In this document: positions 3 through 1,593 of the stretch, in pieces
How the letters are laid out: every line of letters begins with the position of its first letter
Numbering within the stretch: position 1 is the first letter of the stretch
Source: an uncultured Gemmatimonadales bacterium
Lineage (GTDB): Bacteria > Gemmatimonadota > Gemmatimonadetes > Gemmatimonadales > GWC2-71-9
Length of the DNA: 64,000 nucleotides
Direction of reading: 5' to 3'
NCBI GenBank assembly: GCA_963771275.1
Contig: CAVYSW010000009.1
Coordinates: 160,001-224,000, forward strand
The notes under the pieces: model-generated
What the model saw: the letters and a program-made list of their open reading frames with translations, nothing else
Databases searched by the model: none
What the model was told of the DNA's origin: nothing
Made by a program: the position numbers and the translations under genes

Positions 3-950
3 CTGGCGTGCGTCGTCTACGAGATGCTGGTCGGCGAGACGCCCGGCATGTGGCCGAGTGACGAGGCCCTCCGGGTGGGACGGTTCCTCGACGCGTCTCC
101 CGCGCACCGCGAGCGGCTGGACGCCCTGCCAGGCCGCGTCGAGCAGACGCTGGTCCGCGCCCTGGCCATCCGGCCGGCCGATCGCTTCGCGACCCCCACG
201 GCGTTCGCCGAGGCGCTGACCGCCGCGTTCGCCCGGGGTCCCGCGCTCCCCGATGCGGAGGTGAGCCGGTTGCTGCGGCGGGCCGCGGAGCTCGAAGTGG
301 AGCATCCCACCAGAGAGGGCGCGCTGTCGATCGGCGGCGTCGAGCAGGTGGCGGCCGAGGTGGGCATCCCGCCGCTGCTGGTGCGCCAGGCCGCGCGGGA
401 GCTGGTGCGACCGACCGCCCACGTCCCGGCGGAGCCGGCCACGCGTCGCCGCGGGTTCTTTCCGAGCAGGCTGGTCATCGAGCACATGGTCGCGGGGCGG
501 ATCCCGGAGTCCGCGTACGAGAGCGTCGTGGAGGAGATCCAGCGCACGTTCGGGGTCGTGGGGATGGGGTCCACGCTCGGCCGCTCGCTCACCTGGACGG
601 GCATGCCCGGGGGTGGCTCGGGCCGCGACGTGCGCATCGCCATCACGCCCGAGGGCGATGGGACGCGGATCCACATCGAGGAGCATCTCGAGCTGCGCGG
701 CATCACCAAGGCGGCGCCCGGGCTTGGGGCGGCACTGGCCGGCGCGCTGGGCGCCGTGATCGCCGGTCTCCTGGGCGGGGGCGACGCTGCGGGGATCGGC
801 ATGCTCGTCGGCATGGCGCTCGGCATTCCCGGAGCGATCCGGTTCATCCTGGTGACGCAGGAGATGCAGCGCCAACCGCAGCTCGAGGAGCTGGCCGAGC
901 GGCTGGCGGCGCGGGCGGAGCGGGCGTTGCCGCCGGGGCGACAGGAGTAA
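3..950 (+). CDS. Ser/Thr protein kinase, C-terminal part (5' end outside window), with C-terminal membrane hairpin
   Basis: Frame is open from the window start: LACVVYEMLVGETP (kinase subdomain IX), RALAIRPADRF (subdomain XI), then two Gly/Ala-rich hydrophobic segments. Confidence 0.8.
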   Translation: MACVVYEMLVGETPGMWPSDEALRVGRFLDASPAHRERLDALPGRVEQTLVRALAIRPADRFATPTAFAEALTAAFARGPALPDAEVSRLLRRAAELEVEHPTREGALSIGGVEQVAAEVGIPPLLVRQAARELVRPTAHVPAEPATRRRGFFPSRLVIEHMVAGRIPESAYESVVEEIQRTFGVVGMGSTLGRSLTWTGMPGGGSGRDVRIAITPEGDGTRIHIEEHLELRGITKAAPGLGAALAGALGAVIAGLLGGGDAAGIGMLVGMALGIPGAIRFILVTQEMQRQPQLEELAERLAARAERALPPGRQE

Positions 951-1150: not shown

Positions 1151-1186
1151 AGACAGAAAGGCCGGGCGACGACATGTCACCCGGCT
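1151..1186 (-). terminator. Intrinsic terminator downstream of the tRNA-like RNA
   Basis: Minus strand GCCGGGUGAC-AUGUC-GUCGCCCGGC followed by CUUUCUGUCU; the stem contains a G-U pair that forms only on the minus strand. Confidence 0.6.
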
Positions 1187-1275
1187 TTCTCTCAGCGTAG
1201 CGAAGCTGGCTACGCAGCGGCACTCCGTGGTGTCAACGTACGCTGTGCCTTCGACACCGTCAACGACGCGGCGGG

Positions 1276-1359
1276 TGCTGGCGGTGGGATTCGAACCCAC
1301 ACGGGCTCGCGCCCGACGGAGTGCCGCTCCGCTGCGTCTGCCAGTTGCGCCACGCCAGC
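1276..1359 (-). tRNA. tRNA-Leu-type cloverleaf with non-canonical anticodon loop (GCGGCAC, nominal anticodon GGC); pseudo-tRNA or tRNA-mimic domain
   Basis: GCTGGCG/CGCCAGC acceptor stem, A73, D-arm GCG-CAACTGGCAGA-CGC, anticodon stem GCGGA/TCCGT, variable arm CGGGC-GCGA-GCCCG, T-arm GTGGG-TTCGAAT-CCCAC; C33 instead of U33; CCC rather than CCA. Confidence 0.8.
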
Positions 1360-1593
1360 ACCCATACGACAGCGCACCATGGCAACCCGAGGGCAGAAGA
1401 CGTGGGAGATTGGACCCGTTGCCGACCGCACGGACACGGTAGCACGTGCGGTCTGGGGCGCCGGCACCGTTTCCTCGCCCGTGGGATCAGAAGGCCGCGG
1501 GAGGATCGTCAATGCCGCGCGGGCGCGGGAGCAGGAACGGGCGTGCGACGAGTAACCCCGTCCGGCTGTACCGGACTCACAAGGAGGTTCAGC

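Follow-up and report, generated by a model that had tools for sequence, protein, structure and literature searches.

The window analysed here is a stretch of 64,000 nucleotides (nt) from an uncultured Gemmatimonadales bacterium, corresponding to C9:160001-224000 of a source genome of 3.86 Mb in 11 contigs. Near its start it encodes a transfer RNA (tRNA) with a leucine-type body and an alanine anticodon, directly followed by a candidate small RNA gene whose 5' end is complementary to the anticodon arm of that tRNA. We propose that the two form an RNA-only module of two genes, in which the antisense RNA neutralises a misreading Leu-type tRNA; the pair would work either as a switch for conditional mistranslation or in the manner of an RNA-RNA toxin-antitoxin system, and we give this reading about an even chance of being correct. 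Its foundations were established by sequence comparison and consist of the anatomy of the unit, its conservation, the pair-specific covariation of the two RNAs, the Leu-type identity elements of the tRNA and the lack of a conserved protein neighbour. Judged by anatomy and covariation, the two-RNA module is a new, well-supported family of at least 73 units that is absent from Rfam, and would be so even if its function differs from the one proposed. Coordinates are window positions, and all elements of the locus lie on the minus strand.

The class II Leu-type tRNA (1276..1359, minus strand) was recognised by ARAGORN, by its match to the Rfam tRNA model, by the cloverleaf obtained with RNAalifold and by its likeness to the tRNA-Leu of the same genome. 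ARAGORN called an 88-nt tRNA at 1273-1360 (minus strand) with the Ala anticodon GGC, and the Rfam model (RF00005) matched 1276-1359 with 42.6 bits (gathering score 29), compared with 72 and 71 bits for the tRNA-Trp and tRNA-His of the window; seven further family members scored 47-56 bits. The molecule has 7/5 acceptor/T stems, A73 and a long variable arm, and A73 is followed by CCC (1275-1273). Its anticodon arm spans 1332-1316, with the loop GCGGCAC at 1327-1321 and the anticodon GGC at 1325-1323. Elongator tRNAs have a 7-nt anticodon loop with a near-universal U33. The window tRNA has C33 in place of U33, and G32 can pair with C38, by which the loop could close to 5 nt. The first-pass annotation had called this tRNA odd, a description that our analysis supports. 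The D-arm, V-arm and A73 resemble those of the genome's own tRNA-Leu, and the window tRNA is 50-67% identical to the Leu isoacceptors; for three canonical Ser tRNAs the value is 48-49%, and for an atypical Ser(UGA) call it is 62%. That call (C10:79803-79886), whose D-arm is atypical, is separated by 2.6 kb from the odd unit at C10:82432, and its identity to the five odd tRNAs of the genome is 53-62%, above that of the other Ser tRNAs.

Five such units are present in the genome (C9:161273, C3:117492, C3:143434, C3:1869917 and C10:82432). With BLAST we recovered 25 units in 61 relatives and extra regions, and a pattern scan of one genome per species, which required a Leu-type D-arm, C36-A37 and a T-arm, returned at least 120 loci. 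At least 135 distinct Leu-like tRNA loci have non-Leu anticodons, and at least 73 of these are followed, at a distance of 38-90 nt, by a strong complement to their own anticodon arm. Forty-six of these units come from named records; among the matches listed, 42 have Gemmatimonadota titles, three belong to Planctomycetota lineages and one to an unclassified bacterium. The tRNA pattern was matched by 25 of 401 sampled genomes of the phylum, with 1-5 copies each (reversed-pattern control: 0), a lower bound because the pattern is narrow. By family, matches were found in 17 of 165 genomes of f1, 4 of 5 of f3, 2 of 94 of f2 and 1 of 2 of f5, and none were found in the remaining eight families of the sample (e.g., f6, 0/30, and f7, 0/70).

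For comparative analysis, 64 units were aligned with MAFFT without fitting to any structure (alignment A2). Left out of the 73 were four non-Gemmatimonadota units, four units with long spacers and one unit from a genome flagged as unpublished (L019), which was also excluded from every other alignment and from the 68-unit test described below. In Escherichia coli, A73, A14, A15:U48, G18G19 and D/T-loop contacts are described as Leu determinants and C2-G71 as an anti-SerRS element, and neither the anticodon nor the long arm is among the determinants of tRNA-Leu identity (PMC9976931). Across our family, A73 is present in all 64 units and C2-G71 in 62, A14, A15, G18 and G19 are invariant, and U48 is found in at least 90%. 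By these identity elements the family tRNA is leucine-type and a predicted LeuRS substrate.

None of the units has a Leu anticodon (NAG or YAA). The family anticodons are GGC, CGC, CAC, GAC, GCC, GGU, GUC, CUC, UUC, UGC and AGC, corresponding to Ala, Gly, Val, Asp, Glu or Thr. In the 25 BLAST-found units, which were free of any anticodon filter, we counted CGC 11 times, GGC 8, CAC 3, and GAC, GCC and GGU once each; A37 is present in all 25 and C36 in 24, with positions 34 and 35 variable. tRNAs with C36 need no special modification at position 37, so an anticodon swap on a Leu body would be functional at once. The family anticodons match the top codons of the genome (GCG 1st, at 6.95%; GCC 2nd; GGC 3rd; GUG 5th; GAG 6th; GAC 7th), and codons starting with G make up 41.6% of its codon use. 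Ordinary tRNA-Ala genes with the anticodons GGC, CGC and UGC are retained.

The second RNA of the module begins with an antisense segment or 'guide' (1212..1228, minus strand), which was delimited by its complementarity to the anticodon arm, by family covariation and by its identity in L178, an ortholog from another genus. Its first part, ACGGAGUGCCGCU (1228-1216), is complementary to tRNA positions 31-43. This perfect 13-mer, pairing 1216-1228 with 1316-1328, had been pointed out by the first-pass annotation, and none of 2000 mononucleotide shuffles of the 133-nt trailer reached its length. An inverted-repeat search returned arms at 1213-1228 and 1316-1331 (16 nt at 94%) that contain the 13-mer, and a second register pairs 1212-1220 with 1329-1337 (9 nt, perfect), placing small-RNA positions 1220-1212 opposite tRNA positions 22-30. 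The window small RNA corresponds to a full antisense copy of the arm minus 5 nt (UCCGC), and the two registers arise because the copy lacks this one UCCGC. Among the 62 ARAGORN tRNA calls of the genome, complements between tRNA and trailer are longest (14, 14, 13 and 11 nt) in four of the five paralogous odd units, and the next is 10 nt.

The guide is followed by a 7-base-pair (bp) hairpin, GCGUAGC-CAGCUUC-GCUACGC (1195..1215, minus strand), which is kept in the ortholog. Over the 64 units, 89.5% of its cells are paired, compared with 12-51% with slid columns, and two pairs have changed on both sides. The intrinsic terminator (1151..1190, minus strand) consists of a stem-loop at 1185-1161 and the U-rich tail CUUUCUGUCU; the terminator scan found one where 0.1 was expected, and the ortholog shows compensatory changes. 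Both elements had been drawn in the first-pass annotation and proved to be conserved. The hairpin appears to be a diverged antisense copy of the tRNA D-arm, and the small RNA to have arisen by inverted duplication of part of the 5' half of the tRNA. In most units, the small-RNA 5' end pairs with the D-stem 3' strand, position 26, the anticodon-stem 5' strand and the loop (16-21 bp). In a subtype (L001, L002, L081, L088, L107, L117, L123, L142, L158 and L178), the antisense begins five bases earlier and covers the anticodon-stem 3' strand too. In cofolding predictions, tRNA and small RNA join in a duplex of some 40 bp, gaining -17 to -37 kcal/mol relative to the two RNAs folded on their own, and the seed is largely unpaired in the predicted fold of the free small RNA.

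The helix between tRNA positions 22-38 (A2 columns 24-40) and the antisense segment was scored across the alignment. Of 1222 cells, 85.8% are paired, compared with 69.6% in shuffles (none of 500 as high) and 31-48% with slid partners, and the covariation score is 0.446 versus 0.177. Changes on both sides were found in 12 of the 15 main-helix pairs, including those of the anticodon positions 34 (C-G 33, G-C 16, U-A 2) and 35 (G-C 26, A-U 19, U-A 6); at position 33 the pairs are U-A in 32 units, C-G in 18 and U-G in 9. An alignment-free test, in which each tRNA arm was combined with the downstream region of every unit, gave a mean of -34.9 kcal/mol for the own partner and -20.0 kcal/mol for foreign partners (standard deviation 4.8). 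The own partner ranked first in 49 of 68 units and among the top three in 66, and in an earlier set of 25 units it ranked first in 20; the misses are near-identical orthologs. RNAalifold also recovered the family cloverleaf, with 16 of 24 pairs changed on both sides, and the anticodon stem covaries as well: at each of its pairs, both sides differ in 14-34 sequences. Since cloverleaf and antisense duplex both covary, both the cloverleaf and the alternative duplex appear to be maintained. The pairing of anticodon arm and antisense is thus best read as selected, and it is kept with changes on both sides across the 64 aligned units, in agreement with the earlier suggestion that loop and linker are under selection to pair. 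Two outcomes had been named in advance as speaking against that suggestion, namely homologues that keep the tRNA without the complement and a lack of covariation; the outcome of this check favours the suggestion. With five units in this genome and at least 73 distinct units overall, the one-off inverted template switch that had been offered as a fallback does not account for the match.

The family units share one architecture: a putative upstream promoter (P1), the leader, the tRNA, a second promoter-like site (P2) and, 6-8 nt further on, an RNA of about 78 nt with the antisense 5' end, hairpin and terminator. For P1 we propose the -10-like hexamer TACCGT (1436..1441, minus strand), with a start near C1428, on the basis of alignment A3 and the ortholog. 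In A3 (64 units), the conserved leader start GCGG..CGG.A is preceded, at a distance of about 7 nt, by a hexamer of the type TAnnnT/CATCnT, and in L178 the P1 hexamer is TATCAT. The 5' leader of about 69 nt (1360..1428, minus strand), recognised by its conserved blocks in A3, comprises the conserved start CGGUCGGCAACGG, a degenerate copy of the antisense segment, CGUC, a CUCG-loop hairpin (~1394-1385), UGCCAUGG and GGU (1362-1360). The GGU, at positions -3 to -1, faces A73-C74-C75 and is conserved in 59, 56 and 55 of 64 units, respectively; it was not found at that leader position in the genuine tRNA-Leu genes that we compared. With it, the acceptor stem is extended to 11 nt of perfect pairing (1273-1283 with 1353-1363), in line with the extension that the first-pass annotation had described. 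The leader GGU resembles that of the RNase P RNA, which docks on the RCC end of tRNAs.

As a whole, the family leader of about 70 nt looks as if the 5' half of the tRNA had been copied in inverted orientation, had degenerated and had received a small tetraloop hairpin as an insert. Its duplex with the conserved tRNA 5' half is of a generic kind (own, -37.2 kcal/mol; foreign, -34.4 kcal/mol). We also considered the leader as a second co-evolving antisense and rejected it, the duplex with the anticodon arm reaching -21.6 kcal/mol for the own and -18.8 kcal/mol for foreign partners, with a median rank of 14 among 68. RNAalifold found no consensus structure in the leader over the 64-unit alignment.

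P2, the promoter-like site of the small RNA (1235..1263, minus strand), has a -35 TTGACG (1263-1258), a 17-nt spacer and a -10 TACGTT (1240-1235), and was delimited by column conservation. In A2, the -35 columns are T in 59, T in 59, G in 57, A in 41 and C in 46 of the 64 units; in the -10, 60 units have A at position 2 and 63 have T at position 6. The spacer measures 17 nt in 44 of 64 units, and in 35 of 64 the -10 ends 8 nt before A2 column 172, the second base of the typical antisense segment. These columns imply a transcription start 6-8 nt before the antisense segment. L178 has an identical anticodon arm and an identical antisense segment and hairpin (with loop changes reported in the hairpin), and it keeps the -35 and -10 of P2 while the spacer has diverged. 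Kept boxes and a kept small RNA with a diverged spacer are the pattern expected of a promoter followed by a functional RNA. We therefore treat P2 as promoter-like, on comparative grounds.

In about 60% of units, the -35 of P2 is extended to TTGACTCGGC (A2 columns 129-132), and the -10 has GCCGAG immediately before it or CTCGGC immediately behind it. This GCCGAG/CTCGGC inverted repeat around the -10 (e.g., L016, L010 and L043) could be an operator or a transient hairpin. A 290-nt contig of a marine-sediment metatranscriptome contains the 3' part of the tRNA with one mismatch and then the TTGACTCGGC promoter of a relative, possibly through DNA carry-over, and was not counted as evidence. Three raw RNA runs, picked by shared label alone and hence no real test of expression, gave 0 reads on the stretch.

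The same design was found in Planctomycetota (L075, L080, L082, L116, L161 and L165) and in an AT-richer unclassified bacterium (L083 and L176), with canonical promoters such as TTGACT-17-TATAGT-6 and TTGCCA-16-TATAAT-7. Four Planctomycetota units (L116, L150, L161 and L165) have a T-run directly after the tRNA, between it and the promoter, which suggests that the complement there is the 5' end of a separate small RNA. In most Planctomycetota units, the seed is antisense to the variable arm and the anticodon-stem 3' strand. Because the seed site differs, what is conserved appears to be a private antisense RNA against the tRNA and not one target site.

In the mechanism that we propose for the two-gene module, gene 1 would comprise its own promoter, the structured leader of about 69 nt and a Leu-type class II tRNA with its anticodon altered to that of an abundant non-Leu codon; the window anticodon GGC would read the Ala codons GCC and GCU. 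Gene 2, directly downstream on the same strand, would be expressed from its own promoter as a small RNA of about 78 nt with an antisense 5' end, a hairpin that mirrors the D-arm and a terminator. The small RNA would seed on the exposed anticodon loop and zip through the stem and D-arm to the acceptor 5' strand, unfolding the tRNA; the resulting duplex would stop both decoding and charging and would probably be a substrate for a double-strand RNase. The leader GGU on A73-C74-C75 could act as a second lock and may slow 5' maturation. Since LeuRS ignores the anticodon, a tRNA free of the small RNA would be charged with Leu and would deliver it at Ala, Gly, Val, Asp or Glu codons. A stable tRNA with a labile antisense RNA would follow a toxin-antitoxin-like logic.

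Several points weigh against this proposal. The shuffle control of the covariation ignores phylogeny; the slid-column and own-versus-foreign controls are free of this weakness, but the members are related. A strict sigma-70 scan of 1100-1520 returned no promoter, neither P1 nor P2, and only 18 of 64 units pass the strict sigma-70 rule at P2. There is no terminator between tRNA and small RNA in the Gemmatimonadota units. The C36-A37 of loci L058-L177 was imposed by the search pattern. At position 33, at least 18 of 64 units have C and one has A, and this frequent non-U33, together with G32, C33 and C38 of the window tRNA and its 42.6 bits, speaks for a lack of strict selection for efficient decoding, or for some copies being disarmed. 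Finally, the genomic setting differs from that of typical mobile toxin-antitoxin loci: the units lie between housekeeping genes, and one of them keeps its synteny from one genus to another (L005 and L024).

A stronger form of the proposal, which we regard as possible and advance tentatively, is an RNA-only toxin-antitoxin or abortive-infection device. A stable Leu-charged tRNA would put leucine at the commonest Ala, Gly, Val, Asp and Glu codons throughout the proteome, and a short-lived mirror-image RNA, encoded by an inverted half-copy of the tRNA gene, would serve as antitoxin. A third lock would come from the leader GGU, as a mimic of the GGU of RNase P. Phage attack or stress that halts transcription would let the antisense RNA decay and set the tRNA free. 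There would be several orthogonal pairs per genome, spread to or re-arisen in at least two phyla.

The first-pass annotation had instead drawn a single RNA of about 230 nt, in which a tRNA mimic forms the core of a non-coding RNA that is switchable or pseudoknotted through cis pairing of the trailer with the anticodon arm. The selected pairing at its heart holds, and a functional single transcript of about 230-290 nt would fit the lack of a terminator between tRNA and complement in Gemmatimonadota, the conserved leader that extends the acceptor stem and the weakness of P2 under the strict consensus rule; in addition, the minimum free energy fold of the contiguous 1140-1385 uses the pairing (-125.7 kcal/mol, z = -3.86; none of 200 shuffles as stable). 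We nevertheless consider such a transcript improbable as the functional form, since conserved -35 and -10 columns lie between tRNA and complement and place a start at the complement, the P2 spacer diverges while the boxes are kept, and T-runs follow the tRNA in the Planctomycetota units examined. Moreover, the elements needed for the pseudoknot are unconserved or at chance level. Hairpin 1 (GGUGUCGA/UUGACACC) exists in the sequence, but it is not above chance, is lost in L178 and coincides with the P2 spacer (mean z = -0.38 for family spacers against shuffles). The pairing of the leader with the hairpin-1 loop is likewise present in the window but at chance level (own, -18.5 kcal/mol; foreign, -18.4 kcal/mol; median rank 38 of 68). 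With no intergenic terminator in Gemmatimonadota, the pairing could also act in cis in a read-through precursor from P1, and such a precursor from the upstream promoter could hold everything in the earlier drawing.

It is also unlikely, to our judgement, that the tRNA works off the ribosome, either as a structural mimic or by carrying Leu or serving as scaffold in some non-ribosomal process, with its loop as a docking site and the small RNA tuning its level. This would agree with the frequent non-U33, the window loop that can close to 5 nt and the strongly conserved tRNA body, which fits recognition by a tRNA-binding protein. However, the pairing alone would require neither the fixed C36 and A37 beside variable positions 34 and 35 nor the match between anticodons and top codons, and no conserved transferase or synthase gene was found nearby among 41 flanking open reading frames (ORFs).

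The roles could also be reversed, with the small RNA as the effector: its 5' seed would regulate mRNAs and the tRNA-like RNA would be a sponge or decoy, or the small RNA would titrate genuine tRNAs with similar loops. Small RNAs with 5' seeds and sponges derived from tRNA precursors exist, and the seed is single-stranded in the predicted small-RNA fold. However, the seeds vary between paralogs and track the stem sequence of the neighbouring tRNA, not its loop only, so no common mRNA target is apparent. The complementarity extends over 16-21 nt and reaches the D-arm of the neighbour, and some Planctomycetota seeds target the variable arm, which is private to the neighbour. We consider this reading quite unlikely.

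A non-functional by-product, in the form of an inverted template-switch duplication beside a tRNA pseudogene, is very improbable: the small RNA and the leader do look like inverted partial copies of the tRNA 5' half and one copy in the genome (L003) is degenerate, but the covariation contradicts it, as the unit persists, with compensatory changes, in different genera and phyla, its promoter and terminator are conserved and its cloverleaf covaries.

Returning to the two-gene module, we compared it with known systems. The tRNAProX of Streptomyces and Kitasatospora likewise combines the identity elements of one amino acid with anticodons of others (Ala, Asn and Thr), has a non-U33 (A33) and is thought to need tight control, its natural role being given as unknown (PMC11415595). 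It differs in its Pro identity, class I body, A34 anticodon and position beside a dedicated ProRSx, and the available portion of that paper mentions no antisense partner (PMC11415595). The units described here are Leu-type and class II, each has its own antisense RNA gene, and no aminoacyl-tRNA synthetase domain was found among the 41 flanking ORFs. Allo-tRNAs share the class II body, long variable arms, many non-cognate anticodons, an origin in soil bacteria and often several copies (PMC5389517, PMC7609411), and a link to toxin-antitoxin systems or transposons has been suggested for them (Mukai et al. 2017, PMC5389517). They differ in 8/4 or 9/3 acceptor/T stems (a 12-bp branch) and in Ser (G73) or Ala (G3:U70) identity (PMC7609411), whereas our family has 7/5 stems, A73 in 64 of 64 units and, in alignment columns 186 and 268, U-A, C-G or G-C, never G-U, at pair 3:70. 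The words 'antisense', 'tRNALeu', 'Gemmatimonadetes' and 'Planctomycetes' do not occur in the available portion of the allo-tRNA paper PMC5389517.

Type VIII and type I toxin-antitoxin systems resemble the module in that an RNA antidote pairs with or represses the RNA of a harmful partner, the genes are adjacent and several mutually specific copies are possible (PMC11869752). The named type VIII RNA toxins SdsR and CreT, however, are small RNAs and not decoding tRNAs, and type I targets are the mRNAs of toxic peptides (PMC11869752). Our units show type VIII-like complementarity and gene adjacency, and toxicity of the tRNA is what we infer. The antisense RNAs that control plasmid copy number, such as RNA I/RNA II of ColE1 and CopA/CopT of R1, are transcribed from the strand opposite their target. 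They too show mirror-image hairpins in antisense and target, with pairing that spreads from loops or tail to a long duplex. The antisense RNA described here comes instead from a separate inverted copy on the same strand, and because of this it can diverge from its target, as it does by wobble pairs and deletions. T-box leaders, in turn, read a tRNA anticodon through base-pairing, by a 3-nt anticodon pairing and an NCCA pairing upstream of the genes that they regulate, and have an Rfam family; in our unit the pairing covers 13-21 nt including stem strands, would unfold the tRNA and has no regulated ORF downstream.

Consistent with the first-pass annotation, which did not recognise a described family, no Rfam family covers the unit: in the window and seven other loci only RF00005 passes, T-box, tmRNA and other tRNA-like models of Rfam give no match (mascRNA, 18.3 and 28.4 bits at a gathering score of 42.5), and neither the leader nor the small RNA has a family in Rfam. 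In the open full-text literature, from which subscription journals and supplements are excluded, we found no description of a Leu-type tRNA with a non-Leu anticodon and an antisense partner. As far as the available portions of the sources go, none of tRNAProX, allo-tRNAs and type VIII pairs unites a canonical Leu-type body with non-Leu anticodons and an antisense RNA gene of its own.

If the proposal is correct, this would be the first bacterial tRNA with a dedicated antisense RNA gene and the first decoding tRNA to act as a controlled, potentially toxic effector. The Leu-type family would join the few natural mistranslating tRNAs (tRNAProX and allo-tRNA) with a built-in off-switch that those lack, and when and why bacteria mistranslate on purpose would become directly testable through a two-gene cassette of about 300 bp. 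It would also illustrate a route to a trans-acting antisense regulator, by inverted partial duplication of the target gene and subsequent co-evolution, and could offer orthogonal tRNA/anti-tRNA pairs for synthetic biology.

Pfam annotation of the 41 flanking ORFs of 18 loci gave no conserved protein neighbour (PEPCK, trigger factor, Ser/Thr kinases, permeases and others, with nothing in common). In the window, the 3' part of a Ser/Thr protein kinase gene (3-950, plus strand) is convergent with the small-RNA terminator. Kinase genes lie beside L005 and L012 too, and most units have other neighbours.

Leu-type class II tRNAs with NNC non-Leu anticodons (UGC, ACC, AUC, UUC, GUC and GCC) were also detected in many other phyla, with C36-A37 imposed by the pattern. 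Examples are L063 in Azospirillum cavernae, which consists of two tandem copies, L058, L108, L109 and L118 in Saccharibacteria, L059, L073, L077 and L102 in Solirubrobacterales, L106 and L120 in Mucilaginibacter and L131 in Microbacterium. Many of them have an encoded CCA, and no convincing antisense partner was found within 300 nt of these tRNAs. Candidate partners in Noviluteimonas (L091), Vicinamibacterales (L100), Chloroflexi (L086) and at L151 formed scattered, unconvincing duplexes and were not counted. In the source genome, nine long ARAGORN calls (C1:6508, C3:818716, C3:951562, C6:102494, C8:5074, C9:345501, C10:157418, C10:536400 and C10:841877) were set aside as being without unit features, and look like calls inside coding sequence. 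Two of these (C8:5074-5168 and C10:841877-841971) are identical 95-nt 'tRNA-Cys' calls in near-identical flanks, which points to a repeated or doubly assembled segment, and look like false positives.

The degenerate unit of the genome, L003 (C3:143434-143522), has a small RNA that reaches -18.7 kcal/mol with its own tRNA and ranks 24th of 25. Upstream of it lie a remnant of the 3' end of another small RNA and a second leader, suggesting a past tandem arrangement or rearrangement. In L145 and L149, both from Gemmatimonadota, two units with the anticodons CAC and CGC stand in tandem a few hundred bases apart.

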